Positions 19,746 to 62,999 are shown, counted from the stretch's first letter. The stretch: 64,000 bases of DNA from Candidatus Bathyarchaeota archaeon (GCA_963702095.1 OY969706.1:1280001-1344000); one strand, 5' to 3'. The notes: generated from the letters alone by a model not told the origin. Made by a program: numbers and translations.

Positions 19746-19870
19746 AAGTCAGCCTATCTTTTAATTTTTATATTAAAGTTTGGTTGAAAAGGACGCTTGT
19801 TGGAAGTGGTAAGGGCTTTTTAGGTTAATTTAGCCTTCTATAGCTGATGTTGATGTGCGATTGGTTGTTT

Positions 19871-20049
19871 TTTCTCTTTATGCGGGTGTGGCGGTTTGTG
19901 GGGTGCCACAAGACGGCAACTGAGGGCGGTTGCTTTTTTTGGAGGCTTTGCGTTTCGGCGTCTGTTTCGGTGTGGGAAAGCTAATTTCTTCCACATGCGG
20001 TACATGGCTCCATGCAGAAGCGGACGCGTGTGGATGTGGAAGCATGTAT
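19871..20049 (-). repeat. R1 dispersed structured repeat, copy D
   Basis: Reverse complement aligns to 47631-47810 with one 1-nt deletion. Confidence 0.9.
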
Positions 20050-28071: not shown

Positions 28072-28108
28072 TGTGGCGCATGATGGCGCCGTCACAGCCT
28101 TAGGGTAA
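28072..28108 (+). repeat. R2 hairpin repeat, copy 1
   Basis: TGTGGCG-CATGATGGCGC-CGTCACA-GCCTTAGGGTAA. Confidence 0.75.
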
Positions 28109-28161
28109 GTGCCCACAGTTTGGCTTTGCGGGTCATTGGGCACACAAGCGGAGAAAATGCC

Positions 28162-29175
28162 TCAAAGTTTTTTGAATTTTTTCTTTGATGGCCTGACTTG
28201 ATAATTATCAAAGAATTTCTTAACCAAACACTCAAAAACAGGCTTAAATTCTGCCGTTGACAATTCTGCAACTACATACTTCCCCTTATAGCGCACCCCA
28301 TAAACGGCGGTCTCCCTTAGAGGAGGCAATTTTAAATCATGAATAAACCCGCTTCGCCAGTCATAAATCGTTTTTATGGTATCCTTAAAGCATCTATCAA
28401 GCTTCTCCTTATCCGCCATGATGGGGCAGCTGGATTTACCGCGACAGTACCCTTGAACGCTGCCGTTAGTATAGCATTTCCAGTGCTCTTTTAGTTCAAA
28501 ACATGCTGGTAGAGCGGTCTCAGTTGTTTTAGCGGGATTTTTCTTGACATAGCTCCTAATTTCTTCCTCACCTGCGAAACTCTGAGCCGATAACTCCGGG
28601 ACCGCCTGCAGGTACTTAATTGATTTGATAAGTGCCTGTTTCTCCTCGGGGCACATTAGGGTTCTGAGGAAATTGGTGATTTTTGTGATACTGGCATATT
28701 CTTTGCTCCAGCGACCCTTTAGGCTGTCCATGAGCGATGCGAAATCCTTAAACTTCCCCTTTCTGAGCACTTGCAGGTATTCTGCGTCTACGTCTCTTCT
28801 GCTTACCCAATCGTAGAAGTCAACCCAGCCCTCAAAACCACTGGACTCTGCAGAAGCCAATTTTTCGAATACTGACATAACCATAATTAACATCGTGAAA
28901 GGCGGCATTTCCATAGTTTTGCTGCAGCTTGGGCAAGTTTGAGTTTTTTGGGGTGTACTACATTTGGGGCATGTGTAGAATTTGGCGGTGTTGTAGTAAT
29001 TGCCTACGTCGAGTAATAGGGCGGCGGTTTTTGGGTTTTTGAAGTTGTTTACGTATACGATGACGTCGTCAGTGGTGGGGAAGAGGTTGGGGAAGGCTTC
29101 TTGTGTTCTGTGTGTTAGTGCTTGTAGGTATGTTTTTGCTTCGGGGAGTGGGTAAATATCTTTTCTGATGTCCAT
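28162..29175 (-). CDS. Hypothetical protein with zinc ribbon and C-terminal HEPN-like RxxxxH motif
   Basis: CPKC..CPSC; IYDWRSGFIHD. Confidence 0.6.
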   Translation of the reverse strand: MDIRKDIYPLPEAKTYLQALTHRTQEAFPNLFPTTDDVIVYVNNFKNPKTAALLLDVGNYYNTAKFYTCPKCSTPQKTQTCPSCSKTMEMPPFTMLIMVMSVFEKLASAESSGFEGWVDFYDWVSRRDVDAEYLQVLRKGKFKDFASLMDSLKGRWSKEYASITKITNFLRTLMCPEEKQALIKSIKYLQAVPELSAQSFAGEEEIRSYVKKNPAKTTETALPACFELKEHWKCYTNGSVQGYCRGKSSCPIMADKEKLDRCFKDTIKTIYDWRSGFIHDLKLPPLRETAVYGVRYKGKYVVAELSTAEFKPVFECLVKKFFDNYQVRPSKKKFKKL

Positions 29176-29254
29176 TTTCTGGTCTTTCCCAACAGTGAGT
29201 TATTTTTGCAGCCTAAATAGGCTTAGCCCAACCAACTCTGGAACATATTCAAAA

Positions 29255-29294
29255 ATGGCGGGAGAGGATGCCTACGCCCTAGCCTTAGGGCAAA
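29255..29294 (+). repeat. R2 hairpin repeat, copy 2
   Basis: ATGGCGGGAGAGGATGCCTACGCCCTAGCCTTAGGGCAAA; gapless match to the reverse complement of 35538-35577. Confidence 0.75.
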
Positions 29295-29383
29295 TTTTTC
29301 AGGGTTCTCATTATTGAACAATTTAGTGTTGCTGTTATTTTCTAGTGATATGCTTTTATGTCCGAGTTAGGATTTGGTTTGCC

Positions 29384-29764
29384 ATGAAAGATCTAGCCCA
29401 TAAAATTTTGCTGGCTCTGACCTTAATAACTATCATTGGTGAAATAGCTTCTATTATCCTGTGGATAGCCAATCCTACGCTTCCGCCTGGTCAAGCACGT
29501 TTCACCCTGGTTGTCGATTACACTATAGCGGTCGCTAACGCTGCTGTCTTTTCGATTCTAAATATAGCAGCCTTTACCTTGATTTTTAAAAGAAATAAAT
29601 GGGGTCCGCTTTTCTTAATCGCAATTTCAATTGCCAATAGGGTAATTTCATCCACCTTCTTTATAGGCGGCGCTCATTTGATATTTATAGGATGGGCAGT
29701 TCTGCTGATTATTTTCGCATTACTCAGACTACAGAAAACTCCGAAGGAAAACCTAACTAGTTAA
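29384..29764 (+). CDS. Four-TM membrane protein (paralog of 47867-48292)
   Basis: Shared KW(G/A)P..IA....RV..T..F pattern. Confidence 0.7.
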   Translation: MKDLAHKILLALTLITIIGEIASIILWIANPTLPPGQARFTLVVDYTIAVANAAVFSILNIAAFTLIFKRNKWGPLFLIAISIANRVISSTFFIGGAHLIFIGWAVLLIIFALLRLQKTPKENLTS

Positions 29765-29793
29765 AATTTCCTTTTTGCTGGATACAAAACAGA

Positions 29794-30103
29794 GCCTTAG
29801 TTGCGAGGGGCCTTTAGGATAGTTACTTGATGTTATGCGGTTTCTTGTTCTATCCCTTGTGAGGGAGAAATGGAGTTAGGTCGAGGCGGCAACCCTGTGG
29901 TGCCCGCCAGAGATCAAGGGATCAAAGGCAGTCAGGTGCCACGCTGCTGCTATTCCTCAGATACCGTGGTTAATTCTATTCCGGGGGAAGAGGAAAAGCC
30001 AGGGCATGGTCCTTATTGTGGAGGCTGCCTATGGTTAGGCGACAAGGCGGTGTTTTAGGGGGATTCGCTGTTTTATCGCTCCCTCTTCAACACACCGTTT
30101 TTT
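29794..30103 (+). ncRNA. Candidate structured ncRNA (~310 nt)
   Basis: Closing stem GCCTTAGTTGC/GCGACAAGGC, many internal hairpins, terminal hairpin plus T6. Confidence 0.45.
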
Positions 30104-30111
30104 GACGTCTC

Positions 30112-30291
30112 TAACATATTTCCACATCCACACCGAGGCGATTTCAACATAGAGCCATGTATCCCCTGTGAAGAAAAACGCCTATTTCACACCGAAAAGG
30201 ACGCTGGAAACCAGCGCAACCCCAAAAAGCAATCGCCCCCTCAAGCAGTCTTGGGGTGCACCGTAAACCGCCACACCCACATAAAAAGAGA
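30112..30291 (+). repeat. R1 dispersed structured repeat, copy C
   Basis: Gapless alignment to 62811-62990. Confidence 0.9.
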
Positions 30292-30304
30292 GAGAATCAG
30301 TAGG

Positions 30305-30437
30305 AGCTTTCACTGGCGCTTGTCCACGCCACCCGCTTAAAGTCAAAGTTGGGCCTCCCGAGTTCACATAGAGACTACGGATAGGGTACATGTAAGGGGA
30401 TTTTACGCGTGCATCGCAAGCGATCTCAGTGAAAGCC
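30305..30437 (+). ncRNA. Candidate multibranch ncRNA (~133 nt)
   Basis: Perfect 10-bp terminal stem GCTTTCACTG/CAGTGAAAGC enclosing five hairpins. Confidence 0.55.
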
Positions 30438-30511
30438 AAATAAACCTAACGCACGATCGTTATTGTAGTTTACGGATGGAAAAGATAGATTAAACATTAA
30501 GGAAGGAGGGC

Positions 30512-30763
30512 TCATTTTTTGCGTGCTGCAATCAAACCGCGGCATTTATCGGCGTATTGGCAGTACTGGAGGCACACAGCGTTTTCGTCTGGTCGTTTCC
30601 ACTCGGCTCCACAGCTGGGACAGGTGGTTTTGTCTTCGTCGCTCCAAATTTCGATTTCGGCACCGCATACGTGGCAGTTGATGTAGGCAGGTTTTGGCTG
30701 CAATAAATCGCGTAGTCCAGGGCATGTTTCGGGGTTTTTAACGATTTTGTCACTAGAGCTCAA
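30512..30763 (-). CDS. Small Cys-rich zinc-ribbon/Fe-S protein
   Basis: CPG, CHVCG.EIEIWSDE, CPSCG, CLQYCQYADKC. Confidence 0.75.
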   Translation of the reverse strand: MSSSDKIVKNPETCPGLRDLLQPKPAYINCHVCGAEIEIWSDEDKTTCPSCGAEWKRPDENAVCLQYCQYADKCRGLIAARKK

Positions 30764-31388
30764 CGATGTCACCTCCAACTTTAACTTCAAACTCTCTAAC
30801 CGGCACCACTTTGCCTGAGCCTTCCAGCGCCTTGTTAACAGCCCACTTAAGCCCAGTGCAGCAGGGCACCTCCATATGCAAGACTTCTACGGCGGCGATG
30901 TTGTTTAACCGCAGGATTTCGGTGAGTTTAGCTGCGTAGGCGCGGGCGTCGTTGAATTTGGGGCAGCCGATTATGACGCGTTTTTCGGCGATCCAGTCTT
31001 GGAAGTTTTTGATGACTACGGGGGCGCAGTCGGCGGTGAGCATTAGGGTGGCGTTTTCGAAGAAGGGGGCTTTAGGCGGCACGAGGTCTAATTTGACGGG
31101 CCACTGCGGCTTCTGCGGAGTAGCGGTTGCTGCGGGTTTTGTTATTCCTTTGCTTTTTTGGTATTCGTGGACTTCTTTCTCGTCGAACGCGTCGGCTTCC
31201 CGCTCGGTAACTGTGATTGCGCCTTGGGGGCACTGTCCAAGGCATGCGCCTAGTCCGTCGCAGTAGGTGTCTTTGACGAGTTTGGCTTTGCCGTCTACGA
31301 TTTGGAGGGCGCCTTCGACGCATTTGGGGATGCATTGTCCGCATCCGGTGCATTTGCTTTCGTCTATTTGGACGATTTTTCTTTTCAT
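30753..31388 (-). CDS. 4Fe-4S dicluster domain protein
   Basis: CTGCGQC...C, CDGLGAC...CP, QWPVKL, MEVPCC. Confidence 0.88.
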   Translation of the reverse strand: MKRKIVQIDESKCTGCGQCIPKCVEGALQIVDGKAKLVKDTYCDGLGACLGQCPQGAITVTEREADAFDEKEVHEYQKSKGITKPAATATPQKPQWPVKLDLVPPKAPFFENATLMLTADCAPVVIKNFQDWIAEKRVIIGCPKFNDARAYAAKLTEILRLNNIAAVEVLHMEVPCCTGLKWAVNKALEGSGKVVPVREFEVKVGGDIVEL

Positions 31389-31709
31389 TTACTTCTCCTC
31401 TTTTAGGCATTTTCCGCCTGTTGGGCAGAATTTTTGGGCGTGGTTTTCGATGGCGGCGAATATGGGTGTCAGAGTTTCGCGGTTGGCGGTGTAGATGTGT
31501 TTTTTTCCTTCCAGCTGAATGGTTACGATGTTGCATGCAAGCAGCGGTTTGAGGTTGTGGCTAATCATGCTTTGTTCTTGTCCGAGTGCTTCTGCGAGTT
31601 CGCCTACGCTTAGGGGTTGTTTTAGGAGTTGTTCGATTGCGGCGAGGCGGGTGGGGTTTGCGAGGTTGCCGAAGAAGCGGTAGCAGATTTGGTTTAGGCT
31701 TTTCTTCAT
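31389..31709 (-). CDS. ArsR/SmtB family regulator
   Basis: LANPTRL, SVGELAEALG.EQS.ISH.L. Confidence 0.9.
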   Translation of the reverse strand: MKKSLNQICYRFFGNLANPTRLAAIEQLLKQPLSVGELAEALGQEQSMISHNLKPLLACNIVTIQLEGKKHIYTANRETLTPIFAAIENHAQKFCPTGGKCLKEEK

Positions 31710-31729
31710 TTTTTGCCCTTCAAGCGTTT

Positions 31730-31770
31730 ATATGAGTAATCATTCATATGTGGAATTATTCATATAAACC
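31730..31770. promoter_or_regulatory. Tandem ArsR/SmtB-like operator overlapping a TATA box
   Basis: ATATGA-N8-TCATAT (31730-31749) plus an overlapping imperfect second box (31746-31765), just upstream of the ArsR gene. Confidence 0.7.
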
Positions 31771-32025
31771 TGTTGATTAAAAACCACTCAGCCCTAAAGA
31801 AAAACTCGTTTTATAATTGGTATCGGTCAAAGTCTATGCCTGAACCCGTATCTGGCGTAACAAAATAGAAGACAGCCCCACATTTTCTGCAACAGCACTC
31901 TTGATTTCGCTGCTTTTCTATGTTGGCTGAACCGCATTTTGGGCAATGCAAATGAACCGACATTCACTGTACCTTCCTTGCTCTACGAACCACCCATGTT
32001 TAGTTAAATGTTGCCTAAAAAAGGA

Positions 32026-33900
32026 TTAGAGAGTAGAGGATTTTTTGGGTGCCCTGGCATGGCGTCGCAAGCCATAGACAAGTAAACCTGCGCTAATTAC
32101 CCCCGCCAAGATAATCGCCGTCCAGAGCCACCATTGCATCCACAGAGGCTCCGCCGATGCTTGGGCTGTGTTGCTCAGTTTAAGCTCGTCGATGGTGCAT
32201 ATTGCGTCATGTCCAATGTAGGTTTCAGTTGGCCGTACAATCGAGCCAGACGGGTTAGCTACTCCAGAGGTAACTTTGACCTCTTGTTCTTTGCCGTCAA
32301 CGTAGATGTGCATGCCTGTGGTTAAGCTGCGTGTAAAGACAACGTGAATCCACTGATTAAGGGGAACAACCGCCTGTGTGGTGACTATTTCGTTTAATCC
32401 TTCACTGGTCAACACATATCCGCGTAAGGCTCCAACGACTGGGGCGCTGCTGTTTTGTGGGGGCTCCCCGTTGAATGCTAAGCCAAAGGTGCGTGTTGGC
32501 AGGGCGTCAGTTGTTCGGAGGGCTTGAATGATGATATTGTTATAGGAAATTGGCTTGTAAGACTGGACATTAATCCATGCGTCGACTGTTACTTCTCCGG
32601 TGATTTCAAGACTGGGTGACTCGGGCACCATCACGTATTTGAGTCCATCAAAAGCTAAGGCTTGGCCATATTTGCCATTCACTGTTTGAGGAATGTAGGA
32701 GTTGTTGCCACTCATTGAGCCTAAGATGGCGGGGTTGTTGCCGGTTGAGTCAAGGGTTATGCCACTGGAGTCTATGGTATCAAATGACCATGATGCTACC
32801 AGCCCGTTGGATGGAACCGGCGGTGTGGGATTAGCTGGAGGCGCATCTCCCGGATTGGAGGTATAAAATTTTGTGGTTAGGGGATAATTATCTTGGGCAC
32901 CCGTGTAAACAGGGTAAGGAGTGTTGCCTATGCCTGATTCGCCAATTTCTGAGGCGTTAGGGTATTTGGTGTGGTAGTCGCTCCAGTAGTTACCGCCGCT
33001 TTGAGCGCCATTATCCCAGAACTCGATAGGTACAGATTCATTGACGTAGACAGAGTAGGTGTTGCCTACGAAGTTGTTGTGGTAGAAGGTATTGTTGTGT
33101 GGACCTGACAGCTGAGACGTGATGTAGACGCCCCATTTGTTCTGCGCTATATCGTTGGCTGCTACGATGTTATTTGAGGCGGCCAGCCAAATGCCTGATT
33201 CAGTGTTAGAGGAAAATGTGTTGCCAAATACCACCGAATAAGAAGACCCTAAACCTAGTCCTCTATAATTGTGCTCAACCGTGTTGTTTGTTACGGTGTT
33301 TGAGTAGCCCTGTAGGGCGATTCCTGAAACGGCGTTTCCGACTATGGTGTTGTTTGAGATTGTGTTGTAGGAGCCGCCGTAGAAGCGCATGCCATCTTTA
33401 AGGTTGTTTGCGATTGTGTTTCCAGTGATTTTGAGGTTGGACTGGACTGAGCAGAATATGCCCATGTAGTTGCCTTGGATGATGTTATTTTGAATTGAGC
33501 ATTGGTCCACGTTGATGATGAATCCTGTTGCGTAAAAATTGGAGTTTGTGTAGTTTTGGCTTTCAACAGTGAAGCCTTGGATGTTGGTGTTCTTTGCATT
33601 CAACACAATGACGCCACGGGCCCCCCTGTCAACGCCCCCTGATCCAATTAATACTGTGGTTTTGGCGTCTTGACCTATGATTGATATGGATTTGTTGACT
33701 TGCAGGTTTTCATAGTAAACGCCGCTTTGAACTGCTATAGTATCGCCGTCGGAGGCGTGACTGATCGCTTGGGCTATGGTGGAGTACTCCGTTGGAACAT
33801 TCAAAGTTTTTGAAGCAGAACTAAACTGTAAATTAATCAACCATACCGCTGAAAGTAAGATTGCAACTAACACTATGACTTTTTTGCCATTCGGATTCAT
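32026..33900 (-). CDS. Secreted NosD-like beta-helix plus LamG-like domain protein with C-terminal TM
   Basis: Asn-rich beta-helix repeats, GGNYWSDY, W.HVVFT..YVDG. Confidence 0.82.
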   Translation of the reverse strand: MNPNGKKVIVLVAILLSAVWLINLQFSSASKTLNVPTEYSTIAQAISHASDGDTIAVQSGVYYENLQVNKSISIIGQDAKTTVLIGSGGVDRGARGVIVLNAKNTNIQGFTVESQNYTNSNFYATGFIINVDQCSIQNNIIQGNYMGIFCSVQSNLKITGNTIANNLKDGMRFYGGSYNTISNNTIVGNAVSGIALQGYSNTVTNNTVEHNYRGLGLGSSYSVVFGNTFSSNTESGIWLAASNNIVAANDIAQNKWGVYITSQLSGPHNNTFYHNNFVGNTYSVYVNESVPIEFWDNGAQSGGNYWSDYHTKYPNASEIGESGIGNTPYPVYTGAQDNYPLTTKFYTSNPGDAPPANPTPPVPSNGLVASWSFDTIDSSGITLDSTGNNPAILGSMSGNNSYIPQTVNGKYGQALAFDGLKYVMVPESPSLEITGEVTVDAWINVQSYKPISYNNIIIQALRTTDALPTRTFGLAFNGEPPQNSSAPVVGALRGYVLTSEGLNEIVTTQAVVPLNQWIHVVFTRSLTTGMHIYVDGKEQEVKVTSGVANPSGSIVRPTETYIGHDAICTIDELKLSNTAQASAEPLWMQWWLWTAIILAGVISAGLLVYGLRRHARAPKKSSTL

Positions 33901-34056
33901 CCAATCACCTGCAACAATAGAGACGTGGTGAGATATTACTCTCCCCCCGAGAACGGAGTGTTCTCCTAACGGAACACAAAAAACTCGTTTTTTAAATGAG
34001 AAGGGATAGCTTTTTGAGTGTCTTCACTCATCTTTGGCACGTAAGGATGTAATGTT

Positions 34057-34188
34057 TTGTCTAAGAAAGCAAAGAAAGCAGAAGGATTAGAACAGCATAA
34101 GAAACTGCAAAGGGAAAAAGACCAGAAACGCAAAGCAAGAAAACAGGTTGCGCTTCCCTCCAAACACCAAGGTAAAGGCAAAAAGTAG
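34057..34188 (+). CDS. Small very basic protein (43 aa, not in ORF track)
   Basis: TTG start after AAGGA; MSKKAKKAEGLEQHKKLQREKDQKRKARKQVALPSKHQGKGKK. Confidence 0.55.
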   Translation: MSKKAKKAEGLEQHKKLQREKDQKRKARKQVALPSKHQGKGKK

Positions 34189-34317
34189 CCTTGCCATTTC
34201 CAGTAAATCATCTCATCCATTTTTTAAGCTAAAAATCGCTTTGTTGCGTTGTTATGCCCTGTTTGAGGAAGGTTTGGGGTCTGTCATTCGTTTTATTCTT
34301 CATCTTTCCCAATCAGA

Positions 34318-34354
34318 CTGGGACGGCGACATCATCCCCCGTCACAATAAGCGA
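34318..34354 (-). repeat. R2 hairpin repeat, copy 3
   Basis: 37 bp identical to 35550-35586. Confidence 0.9.
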
Positions 34355-34388
34355 CACCTCAACCAAATAAACCTTACAAAAGCGTTTC

Positions 34389-34568
34389 TCCCTCTTTGTG
34401 TGGGTGTGGAGTTTTACGGTGCAACACATGGTTGTTTGAGATGGGATTTGCTTTTTGCCAATGCAATGCTTTTCAGCGCCCGTTTCGGTGTGGGAAAATC
34501 GATTTTCACCACACGCCATACATTGCTCAATGCATAACCCGTTGCCATGTGGGTGTGAAAGCATGTTG
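34389..34568 (-). repeat. R1 dispersed structured repeat, copy E
   Basis: Reverse complement aligns without gaps to the other copies; most diverged. Confidence 0.85.
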
Positions 34569-34703
34569 AGTAAGCATAAAAATCCACGGGCATTTCGTTT
34601 ATGCTGAAATGTTGGAAGCGAGCAACCACAAGGGTTGCCGCCGACTAAGCACTCAGGATTTAACAAGTAAATTATATAACCAAACAAACAAACTTATTTA
34701 GTT

Positions 34704-35489
34704 ATGGAAAGAATGGGGAAATACCTCTCAATAGTCTTAGTTTTAATCATAGCATCATCTAGTTGTCTTATTGTCAAATCTGCTGATGCTCAATCAATAT
34801 CTAAACCATCTGCGCCAGAGTTTACAGTTAGATATGTTGATTATTCATATGATGTTCCACCAACTTATGGAATAGACCAGTTTACAGGAAAAGAAACAAT
34901 AGTAAAAAATGGCTATCATGTAGAGAATAGGTCTTTTGAATTCACCATAAGAAACCAACCTTATACGCCCTACGAGGATTCACAGGGTAACAATATCCAT
35001 CTTTTCTATAACCTAAGATTCAAAGGGCATTTCGGAGCCGAATGGATGTACTTCCCCTTTCTTGACAATGGACAAGGCGTTCGCAGATTTGCAGCAGGAC
35101 TATATCAGGTATATGACCCAGACCTCGCAGCATCAAATTCTGCCTTTACAATATTATTAGAAAGTATACCCACCCTATTTTATGACCTACAGGATTATGA
35201 CAAAATGCCAAAAATCGGCGATGAGGTTGATTTTCAAGTACAAGCTGCAATAGGATATGTTAGTTATGCAGGGGATGGTTTCTATTCTTTAGCAGGACAA
35301 TCAAGCAGTTGGAGTAACACACAAACAATAAAAATTTCTGCTGTTTCAGCCTCTGTTTCACATTCTCCAAATCCGACGCCAACGCCTTCAGTTCCAGAAT
35401 TTACCCAAGTTGCAGTGATTTCTTTCTTTGTTTCTCTGCCTCTCCTTGCCCTTCTTGTAAAAAAGAGGTTCTTGTCTAAAGATTTATAA
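34704..35489 (+). CDS. Secreted PEF-CTERM surface protein
   Basis: Signal peptide, KPSAPEFT, C-terminal VPEF + TM + KKR; visibly AT-rich. Confidence 0.8.
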   Translation: MERMGKYLSIVLVLIIASSSCLIVKSADAQSISKPSAPEFTVRYVDYSYDVPPTYGIDQFTGKETIVKNGYHVENRSFEFTIRNQPYTPYEDSQGNNIHLFYNLRFKGHFGAEWMYFPFLDNGQGVRRFAAGLYQVYDPDLAASNSAFTILLESIPTLFYDLQDYDKMPKIGDEVDFQVQAAIGYVSYAGDGFYSLAGQSSSWSNTQTIKISAVSASVSHSPNPTPTPSVPEFTQVAVISFFVSLPLLALLVKKRFLSKDL

Positions 35490-35537
35490 CTAGAAACGTA
35501 CAATGTAATTTCAGCAATTCGTCTCGAAAAAAATTAC

Positions 35538-35586
35538 TTTGCCCTAAGGCTGGGACGGCGACATCATCCCCCGTCACAATAAGCGA
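35538..35586 (-). repeat. R2 hairpin repeat, copy 4
   Basis: Reverse complement GTGACGGGGGATGATGTCGCCGTCCCAGCCTTAGGGCAAA. Confidence 0.9.
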
Positions 35587-35845
35587 ATCCTCAACTAAAG
35601 AAGGCAAATTCTAACTATGCTTTTTATCTTAAAAGCTGCTTTGCTTGTATTTTGTTCCTCAACCAACCTGCAACGCAACGCAGACACAGAAACCAAAACA
35701 GGTGTCGTAGTCAAACCCAAAGGTTGTTGTTGTGTATAGGGGATTTTCGGCAACAACAACTAAAGAAAAAAGCAAACGCCCAAACTTGATCCACTGCTTA
35801 AATAAGGGAGTTGCAGTCTTTTTCCCAGGCAAAGAAGGGATAAAC

Positions 35846-47598: not shown

Positions 47599-47630
47599 TT
47601 CTCTCCTTTATCGGTAAGAAGAAGCAATCG

Positions 47631-47810
47631 ATACATAGTTTCACATCCACACCGCGTCCGCTTCTGCGTGGAGGCATGTACGGCGTGTGGAGAAAAATGG
47701 ATATCCCACACCGAAACAGAGGCTGAAAACCGTTGCAAACCCAAAAAGCAGTTGCATTCAGTTGCCGTCTTGTGGTGCCCTGTAAACCGCCACACCCACA
47801 TAAAGAGACA
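47631..47810 (+). repeat. R1 dispersed structured repeat, copy B
   Basis: Gapless; 35 mismatches in 170 nt against copy A by manual count. Confidence 0.92.
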
Positions 47811-47866
47811 AAGGAACAACTACTTAAACGGGCCAAGGGTAAAAATAAGAAAGTGTCGGCTTGTTC

Positions 47867-62650: not shown

Positions 62651-62810
62651 TGTCCTGTTATGGTTGATTTGCCATGCCCAAATAACTGTTAGCTCTTACC
62701 TATGTAAAATGGCGTCAGCATTCTTTTATGCCTTATGAATTCCTAAGCTGTACTCTAAAAATCGCTTTACCGCTAATTAGTTTGTGATTAGTGTGAGGAA
62801 AAACCAGTCG

Positions 62811-62990
62811 ATACATGCCCCCACATACACATCCAGTCCGCTTCAACATAGAGGCATGCTGGGCGTGTGGAGAAAAACTCTTATGCCACACCGAAACAGA
62901 CGCCAAAAACCGTTGCAAACCAAAAAAGCAAACGCCATCACTTGCGGTCTTGCGGCACCCCCTAAACCGCCACACCCACATAAAGAAAGA
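62811..62990 (+). repeat. R1 dispersed structured repeat, copy A
   Basis: Gapless alignment with copies B, C and E. Confidence 0.92.
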
Positions 62991-62999
62991 AAAAGGGTG

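Follow-up and report, generated by a model that had tools for sequence, protein, structure and literature searches.

R2 repeats around single accessory genes of a Bathyarchaeota genome as probable attachment sites of small integrative elements at a C/D-box-like sRNA gene

Results

Copies of the R2 repeat in the window and in the genome

We analyzed a 64,000-nucleotide (nt) stretch of DNA from Candidatus Bathyarchaeota archaeon (GCA_963702095.1 OY969706.1:1280001-1344000), hereafter the window, in which copies of a short repeat, R2, stand on both sides of two accessory genes, p337 and p261 (Table 1). An earlier note on this DNA had taken R2 for a folded recombination site of single-gene cassettes, analogous to the attC sites of integrons, and had raised the possibility of an undescribed gene-capture system. 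Here we describe R2 as the probable attachment (att) site used by a family of small integrative elements in Bathyarchaeia, with the 5' end of a C/D-box-like small RNA (sRNA) gene as the putative target. Throughout, G000 is the genome that contains the window, G007, G008 and so on are its relatives, and L-numbers are individual loci.

All four copies of R2 that had been claimed were found in the window, at 28072-28109 and 29255-29294 on the plus strand and at 34318-34355 and 35538-35576 on the minus strand. The identity of the last two copies was confirmed as a perfect 37-bp run inside a 56-nt direct repeat (34315-34370 and 35547-35602, 91% identity), and the same repeat search of the window paired the other two with the copy at 35538 as inverted repeats I8 (28075-28108, 85% over 34 nt) and I7 (29256-29294, 79% over 39 nt). 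The pattern GATG-N4-CGYC-N2-AGCCTTAGGG had three matches in the window, whereas 100 shuffles gave none. A genome-wide search, as the note had suggested, showed that R2 is rare: an nhmmer profile built from the same 7 copies that it recovered found those 7 in the 2.94-Mb genome (E of at most 1.4e-8), with the next match at E = 0.11. Four of them are in the window, and the remaining three, at genome positions 1401802, 1708236 and 1842936, are solo copies of the form called F1 below.

Both enclosed genes are antisense to the motif, as previously described, and p261 is indeed AT-rich, at 38.0% GC (guanine plus cytosine) compared to 47.7% for the window. The description of p337 as HEPN-like was not borne out, since its 337-amino-acid protein had no HEPN match in Pfam, where a sub-threshold zinc-ribbon match was the only one, and its searches of PHROGs and NCBIfam were empty. 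The sequence CCTTAGG does follow three of the four copies, albeit as a palindrome only in the form CCTNAGG, with the centre base unpaired; the 34318 copy continues TCTGATTGGG in its place. Covariation of the proposed R2 stem did not hold up among 88 distinct family members, where 352 of 500 shuffles reached the observed count of double changes, 69.8% of cells were paired and the outermost pair was unpaired in 66 of the 88 sequences.

Three other identities for R2 were considered and set aside. No tRNA was found in the window and no Rfam match reached the gathering score, which speaks against a tRNA fragment or a known RNA. A terminator or a hairpin of the repetitive extragenic palindromic type does not fit with just 7 copies whose position relative to gene ends is inconsistent. 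An independent small protein gene on the other strand (...LLCPKAGTATSSP...) was kept only as a possible 5' end of an integrase open reading frame (ORF).

Two forms of the site and a C/D-box-like sRNA gene

R2 occurs in two forms, F1 and F2, which have the sequence GGGG(G)ATGATGTCGCCGTCCCAG in common. In F1 this core is followed by CCTTAGGGCAAAGTAATTT, a T-rich spacer and TCTAGTTATAAG, a conserved foreign arm that we refer to as the P arm, and in F2 by TCTGATTGGGAAAGATGAAG...CAGACCCC. The 34318 copy of G000 is F2; its F1 copies are those at 28072, 29255 and 35538, together with the three solo copies. The perfect run shared by F1 and F2 measured 9-23 bp in nine other genomes and always ended at ...CCCAG.

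The F2 copy reads as a 65-nt C/D-box-like sRNA gene, and the 23-bp core of R2 is identical to its first 23 nt. From 5' to 3', the window gene comprises a GGGG stem, C box AUGAUGU, a 12-nt D' guide CGCCGUCCCAGU, D' box CUGA, C' box (A)GAUGA, a variable D spacer, D box CAGA and a CCCC stem. GGGG, AUGAUGU, CGCCGUCCCAG, CUGA, GAUGA and CAGACCCC are kept in 36 distinct F2 sequences; the spacer between C and D' is exactly 12 nt, that between C' and D varies in length and sequence, and the D box (36/36) and the GGGG/CCCC terminal stem are invariant. F2 therefore agrees with the archaeal C/D-box sRNA consensus (C RUGAUGA, D' CUGA, C' UGAUGA, D CUGA), with deviations in the C (AUGAUGU), C' ((A)GAUGA) and D (CAGA) boxes. 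No Rfam family was found for the F2 sequence at the gathering score. In permissive E-value mode, a 251-nt stretch gave four matches, to snoPyro_CD (the best, at 15.9 bits with a full-length alignment), snoR35, snoU31b and sR7; all are C/D-box families, and all are sub-threshold, at 9.5-15.9 bits compared to gathering cut-offs of 37-45. Of 36 other same-genus genomes, 33 have F2, mostly in single copy, and the three genomes without it are 56, 58 and 88% complete.

A sequence resembling a TATA box with its transcription factor B recognition element (BRE/TATA-like) stops some 22 nt short of the GGGG that begins the sRNA gene, in host-type and element-type upstream DNA alike. Between the TATA-like box and the predicted sRNA start lies an inverted repeat, CTGGGAYG ... 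CGTCCCAG, with 78.7% of its cells paired compared to 30-50% in slid controls. It could be an integrase binding pair or half-site, or a promoter element. We also considered a large RNA stem, and rejected it as just two cells were changed on both sides. CTGGGAYG is complementary to that part of the core which forms the D' guide, and most copies of F1 and F2 have it about 20-30 nt ahead of the sRNA start. It is weak in the copies of the window (34355-34375 and 35585-35600) and missing from some F2 genes that have no integrase match within 1.5 kb upstream (L060, L061, L069).

Distribution and order of the sites in relatives

A 27-mer taken from the best copies and searched with 0-3 mismatches, which detects F1, was found in 10 of 36 other same-genus genomes and in none of 24 genomes that represent other genera of the order; the reversed pattern, used as a control, matched nowhere. 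A scan of prokaryotes with one genome per species yielded 42 loci with an F1 site, 35 of them titled Bathyarchaeota or Bathyarchaeia. Two of the 42 are on short contigs of metagenome-assembled genomes titled Candidatus Sulfotelmatobacter sp. (L049) and Methanocella sp. (L040), which are probably misbinned Bathyarchaeia DNA.

In nine of the ten genomes with F1, the two forms share contig and strand, with F1 0.9-5.0 kb upstream of F2; in the tenth (G023) they are on different contigs. To the genome loci we then added 80 loci from metagenomes, retrieved from 105 stretches with a match. Consecutive distinct pairs of sites were F1 to F2 in 29 cases, F1 to F1 in six, F2 to F2 in one and another site to F1 in two, and never F2 to F1. 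The F1-F2 spacing ranged from 516 to 5500 bp over the pooled loci, none of which showed mixed site orientation.

An integrase next to the sRNA gene in full-length inserts

Full-length inserts bring a tyrosine integrase of their own, which is located beside the sRNA gene. In G008 (4.7-kb insert) and G010 (3.9-kb insert), the insert ends in a 315-amino-acid ORF that adjoins F2 and is divergent from it. This ORF scored 29.8 and 30.9 bits against PF00589 (Phage_integrase; cut-off 27.1), matched PHROG integrase families and encodes LGHKD.RSTEKY near the C-terminus of its protein. The best match in the PDB for an integrase profile of six sequences was archaeal XerA (4a8e, E = 6.4e-8). The same profile gave E = 0.43 with the integrase chains 4dks and 3vcf of Sulfolobus spindle-shaped virus 1 (SSV1), and matched the integron integrase IntI4 over 47 residues only, at an E value (5.6e-4) weaker than that for XerA. 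The integrase had no match in the phage collection, and the single sequence also had none in the PDB. Integrase homologues, whether whole, frameshifted or fragmentary, were found beside the core in many further loci.

At 8 of 11 contiguous junctions between P arm, core and integrase, an ORF (MKEET/MSEET...LLCPKAGTATSSP) starts in the P arm and stays in frame across the core and on into the integrase; such junctions include L118, L154, L172, L046, L119, L039, L023 and L044. The read-through ORF joins integrases that begin 'MNIVNV...', and a TATA-like motif and an ATG are present on the opposite strand of the P arm. Since this frame is open from the P arm through the core, integration would split the promoter and the first codons of the integrase off the gene, and the att site of the 'MNIVNV...' subfamily may lie inside the integrase ORF. 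The subfamily with the 315-amino-acid ORF starts downstream of the core; in L084, inspected by eye, the upstream frame stops at a TGA that overlaps the integrase ATG.

Stable flanks and variable cargo

Of 12 relatives compared over 10 kb, 7 have the same flank downstream of the sRNA gene: a zinc-ribbon gene, ArsR, a Fer4/4Fe-4S protein and another zinc-ribbon gene, in some cases with a NosD-like gene ahead of them. The upstream side of the sRNA gene is different in every genome compared. G007 and G000 have both flanks in common at 87-88% nucleotide identity, and their F1-F2 DNA is unrelated. The homology to G007 breaks off at window position 35613, which is ten bases away from the repeat, and is found again in the P arm, core and sRNA gene. 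The DNA between the sites is accessory: its GC content is low (38-44% compared to 49-52% in the flanks), it is non-syntenic in the relatives, and its genes vary by genome. Synteny of the enclosed genes in relatives, part of what the earlier note had named as refuting its reading, was not seen.

The cargo of the window has homologues at other loci. Relatives of p261, with 33-37% identity, stand beside an F1 arm in L010/L056, L047 and L048, and another is found in L142; p261 had no family match in Pfam, PHROGs or NCBIfam. The p337 gene has a homologue of 383 amino acids in G010, where it overlaps the integrase gene of the intact element, and further homologues lie upstream of the sRNA gene in G014 and G015. 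Elsewhere in the family, the G029 element (L090, 2845-4308) contains a DDE_Tnp_1 transposase gene and a broken integrase, and the G008 element (L089, 2591-3502) encodes a HEPN-domain protein.

The two units of the window

On the sRNA strand, the 35538/34318 unit runs F1 core, P arm, p261, R1 repeat, promoter-like region and sRNA gene. It has no integrase inside and no close homologue of one is found in G000, so this pair of sites appears to bound a 1.2-kb remnant or non-autonomous unit. The sites at 28076-28109 and 29260-29357 appear, by their diverged sequence, to be older F1 junctions around p337, a gene characteristic of the elements. The coordinates of both units are collected in Table 1.

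Table 1. Features of the two R2-bracketed units in the window (att assignments are putative)
Feature	Position	Strand	Basis or remark
Complete C/D-box-like sRNA gene (F2)	34276..34340	-	sequence; 36 distinct homologues aligned; 33/36 genomes
Putative att core copy within sRNA gene (nt 1-23); junction at the sRNA end of the insert	34318..34340	-	perfect match to 35550-35572
sRNA upstream region with BRE/TATA-like AAGGTTTATTTGG; 34341-34370 extends the direct repeat	34341..34390	-	promoter suggested by position only
R1-E, copy of the unrelated ~190-nt R1 family, inside the insert	34387..34567	.	repeat searches
Cargo gene p261; signal-peptide-like N-terminus, hydrophobic C-terminus, 38% GC	34704..35489	+	sequence
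Putative element arm (P arm) of F1c, CCTTAGGGCAAAGTAATTTTTTT ... TCTAGTTATAAA	35475..35549	-	77% to F1 arm of G007
TATA-like tttataactaga of F1c P arm, overlapping the p261 stop codon	35483-35494	-	sequence
Putative att core of F1c (sRNA nt 1-23), without D', C' and D boxes	35550..35572	-	sequence
Direct-repeat extension upstream of F1c core (putatively displaced host-side promoter-like DNA)	35573..35602	-	repeat search, G007 comparison
F1a, diverged core GCGCATGATGGCGCCGTCACAG and P-arm start CCTTAGGGTAAG	28076..28109	+	27-mer match, 3 mismatches; repeat I8
Cargo gene p337 (337 amino acids)	28162..29175	-	53% identical to the 383-amino-acid gene of G010
F1b, decayed core GGGAGAGGATGCCTACGCCCTAG and full-length P arm ending TCTAGTGATATGCTTTT (29341-29357)	29260..29357	+	repeat I7; arms of relatives
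p139, membrane-protein-like ORF reading out of F1b arm, 39.8% GC	29345..29764	+	possibly cargo

Discussion

Site-specific integration at the sRNA gene

The core is common to both forms of the site, the arm of F1 is foreign, the order of the sites is fixed, and an integrase and variable cargo lie between stable flanks. Together these are the signature of site-specific integration. The anatomy and distribution of the sites, the integrase in the relatives and the stable flank with variable cargo are direct observations; from them we infer the recombination itself, the place of strand exchange, the promoters and the function of the sRNA.

According to our proposal, the target of the elements would be the first 23 bp of the C/D-box sRNA gene, that is, its terminal stem, C box and D' guide. 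The element-encoded tyrosine integrase would recombine the element site (integrase side, core and P arm) with the chromosomal gene, and the core would be duplicated on integration. At the integrase end, a complete sRNA gene (F2) would be rebuilt with element DNA now upstream of it; at the other end, the old upstream DNA and core would become fused to the P arm of the element (F1). The BRE/TATA-like stretch in element-type upstream DNA, if it is a promoter, suggests that the sRNA would after integration be driven from element DNA beside the integrase gene. Repeated integration would give F1-F1-F2 arrays, and deletion of the integrase would leave units of one or two genes bracketed by R2. The formation of attL and attR by integrative elements, with later decay and, probably, tandem accretion, would account for the cassette-like look of the locus. 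The suggestion that R2 copies are recombination sites is retained in part, as site-specific recombination sites with accessory DNA between them; they are not attC-like folded hairpins, and the capture is not integron-like.

Several observations weigh against this proposal. The window has no PF00589 match, and the nearest of the seven matches in the genome is at 1066877, about 213 kb off. G000 is also without a close copy of the integrase, its best matches being paralogues with 27-31% identity that lie at least 0.7 Mb from the window. The units of the window cannot move by themselves. A search for empty sites, which had been suggested along with one for excised circles, found no strictly empty site (both flanks adjacent) among 12 loci. 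For the excised circle or free element there were no matches in viral contigs, and none of 57 whole metagenome contigs had terminal overlaps. Among sequencing runs, none of RNA matched, and two of DNA contained 5% of the sampled words. The direct repeat of G000 (37 bp perfect, 56 nt at 91%) is longer than that of other F1/F2 pairs, and exchange at a 23-bp core, in its simple form, does not predict the extra length. No near-identical copy of the p261 unit was found in 119 same-genus genomes, so that recent transfer is unsupported and the arrival of the unit was not recent within this sample. The 28072/29255 pair is in the opposite orientation to the sRNA gene and 5 kb away from it, two features that no other locus showed, and it lies outside the conserved flank and beyond a rearrangement breakpoint relative to G007. 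Finally, the expression and the target of the sRNA are predictions, and the best candidate pairing of its D' guide, with 11 contiguous positions (2 G-U) of the large-subunit (LSU) rRNA GCUGGGGCGGCA at position 2360, is not significant alone, being equalled by 178 of 2000 shuffled guides.

The LSU rRNA site is one that we take to be the P loop. The methylated nucleotide of a C/D guide target is set by the fifth-nucleotide rule, which presumably would place the methyl group on the G equivalent to Escherichia coli G2251. The predicted target of 2'-O-methylation is thus the G in LSU GCUGGGGCGG. In eukaryotes, the U31/snR67 small nucleolar ribonucleoprotein makes the modification that corresponds to E. 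coli Gm2251 (PMC7600485), and snoU31b is among the weak sub-threshold Rfam matches of F2. A guide directed against 16S rRNA was also considered and gave no match.

Some further observations bear on the circular form and on the placement of the units. The linear contigs L118, L154 and L172 have integrase, core and P arm in a contiguous arrangement; these could be tandem junctions. The p261 family has about 20 paralogues in G000 (25-40% identity) and nucleotide matches in 79 of the 119 same-genus genomes. The p337 unit may have come to its present place by integration at a secondary site or by relocation. Homology to G007 ends at window position 30277, the edge of an R1 copy, and G007 continues at G000 position 1859715 with 90% identity; this continuation beyond the zinc-ribbon gene points to a ~550-kb rearrangement in which R1 copies may have been the partners. 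We rejected an inversion between the copies at 29255 and 35538, as it would not co-orient all sites and G007 has the present arrangement of the upstream flank. There was no homologue of p139 among the loci compared. Downstream of p139, cagagccttagttgc at 29790-29804 resembles the ...CAG|CCTTAGGGC junction and may be a further, very decayed F1 junction.

Alternative explanations

The reading closest to the earlier note is integron-like capture, with R2 as the folded site of single-gene cassettes, the integrase encoded elsewhere and the sRNA gene as the platform. Several F1-F2 units of 0.5-1.9 kb do hold one or two genes and no intact integrase, F1-F1-F2 arrays do occur, and the conserved end of the P arm is exactly where many unrelated genes stop. 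However, the larger units hold their own integrase or fragments of it beside the core, for which reason the small units look like deletion products, and the G000 array has no integrase in or near it. A covarying hairpin is lacking, the profile match to IntI4 is short and weaker than that to XerA, and the orientation of the cargo is not uniform. As for the gene orientations that the earlier note had wanted tabulated, genes next to the P arm converge on it in most loci, and those in L003, L005, L012 and at window position 29345 read away from it. We consider integron-like capture very unlikely.

Local duplication or gene conversion of the sRNA promoter and 5' end, with the copies serving neighbouring genes as promoters, terminators or regulatory sites, would fit the 56 nt shared by the G000 pair, which reach into the promoter-like region, as well as the T-run after F1 copies and the conserved inverted repeat CTGGGAYG/CGTCCCAG at the sRNA start. 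It leaves unexplained the foreign arm at every F1, the strict F1-to-F2 order, the integrase beside F2 and the differing cargo between stable flanks, and we regard it as highly improbable.

That F1 copies are functional short RNAs (truncated guides or decoys with a C box, a D' guide and a T-run end) rather than scars is an extremely unlikely explanation, for although 133 distinct copies show very good conservation of the core and of the initial ~20 nt of the arm, many of them with a BRE/TATA-like sequence before and T5-7 after, F1 lacks the D', C' and D boxes needed by the C/D ribonucleoprotein, is absent from 26 of 36 same-genus genomes and has decayed cores in F1a and F1b of the window, and such RNAs would be compatible with att sites and hence no true alternative to them.

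The R1 repeat family

R1, which is unrelated to R2, has copies in the window at 2587-2614, 19864-20028, 30099-30293, 34387-34567, 47618-47812 and 62798-62992. The ~190-nt repeat gave 107 blastn matches in the genome, at ~70-80% identity. At least one frame is kept stop-free over at least 63 of 65 codons in 74 of 80 long copies. No Rfam match was found even at E <= 1, and there was no excess folding energy on either strand (z = -0.37 and +0.47). R1 looks more like a small amplified ORF or a miniature inverted-repeat transposable element than a structured RNA.

Relation to known systems

In its proposed mode of action the system resembles integrative elements that target tRNA genes. The closest known parallel in the use of a 5' half is found in the pTN3-like elements of Thermococcales, in which attB is the 5' half of a tRNA gene and the rebuilt gene is expressed from element DNA beside the integrase (PMC8371274). 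As in those elements, the 5' half of a small RNA gene would serve as attB here, an uninterrupted gene would be rebuilt, and the enzyme is a tyrosine recombinase. Unlike in those elements, the target is a C/D-box sRNA gene, the hosts are Bathyarchaeia, and the elements are very small (0.5-5.5 kb).

In SSV-type ('suicidal') integrases, the att site is inside the integrase ORF (PMC7253208). The att core read through in frame from the P arm at most of our contiguous junctions would resemble this arrangement. The differences are that only about 14-23 codons would be split off, that the 315-amino-acid subfamily stays whole, and that the sequence resembles XerA, with nil similarity to the SSV1 integrase.

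Islands that target tRNA, transfer-messenger RNA and other non-coding RNA (ncRNA) genes, and that show tandem accretion, have several of the same features, including direct repeats derived from the RNA gene, an integrase next to the intact gene, co-oriented arrays of sites and decayed units without a recombinase. In bacteria, integrase-less att-flanked derivatives of RNA-gene-targeting islands are known as CIME-type (cis-mobilizable) elements. The present case differs from such islands in that the target is a predicted archaeal methylation-guide sRNA and that the 5' end of the gene is used rather than the 3' end. With the attC and attI sites of integrons, R2 has in common that short repeats stand between single accessory genes at one hot spot and that the recombinase is of the tyrosine family. 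The analogy to attC was not upheld, as no IntI lies next to the array and the proposed stem has no covariation. The RYYYAAC/GTTRRRY cores of attC were absent from the R2 copies in the window sequence as well. The repeats, unlike those of integrons, are copies of a segment of a host gene, and the elements bring their own integrase. With no adjacent integrase, no attC features and no uniform cassette orientation, the array is not an integron.

A 2026 survey gives ncRNAs as 13.5% of provirus RNA targets (PMC13626063), so that ncRNA targets are known as a class. The targets in a survey of Thaumarchaeota were tRNA genes, intergenic regions and protein-coding genes, and the words 'sRNA' and 'snoRNA' occur 0 times in it (PMC6563490); they also occur 0 times in a 2021 review of archaeal tyrosine recombinases (PMC8371274). 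A limited literature search turned up no published case of integration into a C/D-box sRNA gene.

Significance

We also considered a more far-reaching possibility, which we think rather unlikely, that the sRNA gene is an archaeal cassette hot spot in which trans-mobilised units without an integrase are linked to a topology switch of the integrase. If so, the integrases of full-length relatives would excise and re-insert core-bracketed units of one or two genes in trans, giving integron-like gene shuffling founded on a C/D-box sRNA gene. The full integrase gene, with its promoter and first codons in the P arm, would then exist only in the excised circle, and the 'suicidal' logic of SSV-like integrases would have arisen independently in a XerA-like clade.

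To our knowledge, the mobile elements of Bathyarchaeia are almost undescribed. Under the explanation that we favor, integration of small elements at the sRNA gene, R2 records gene mobility of an already known type, with an unusual target, rather than an integron-like system that is new. What looked like an undescribed gene-capture system has an ordinary explanation. The locus would define an element family with its integrase, a 23-bp core and a target that is a predicted methylation-guide sRNA gene, not a tRNA gene, and the 23-bp core together with either arm would be a simple marker for such islands in metagenomes.

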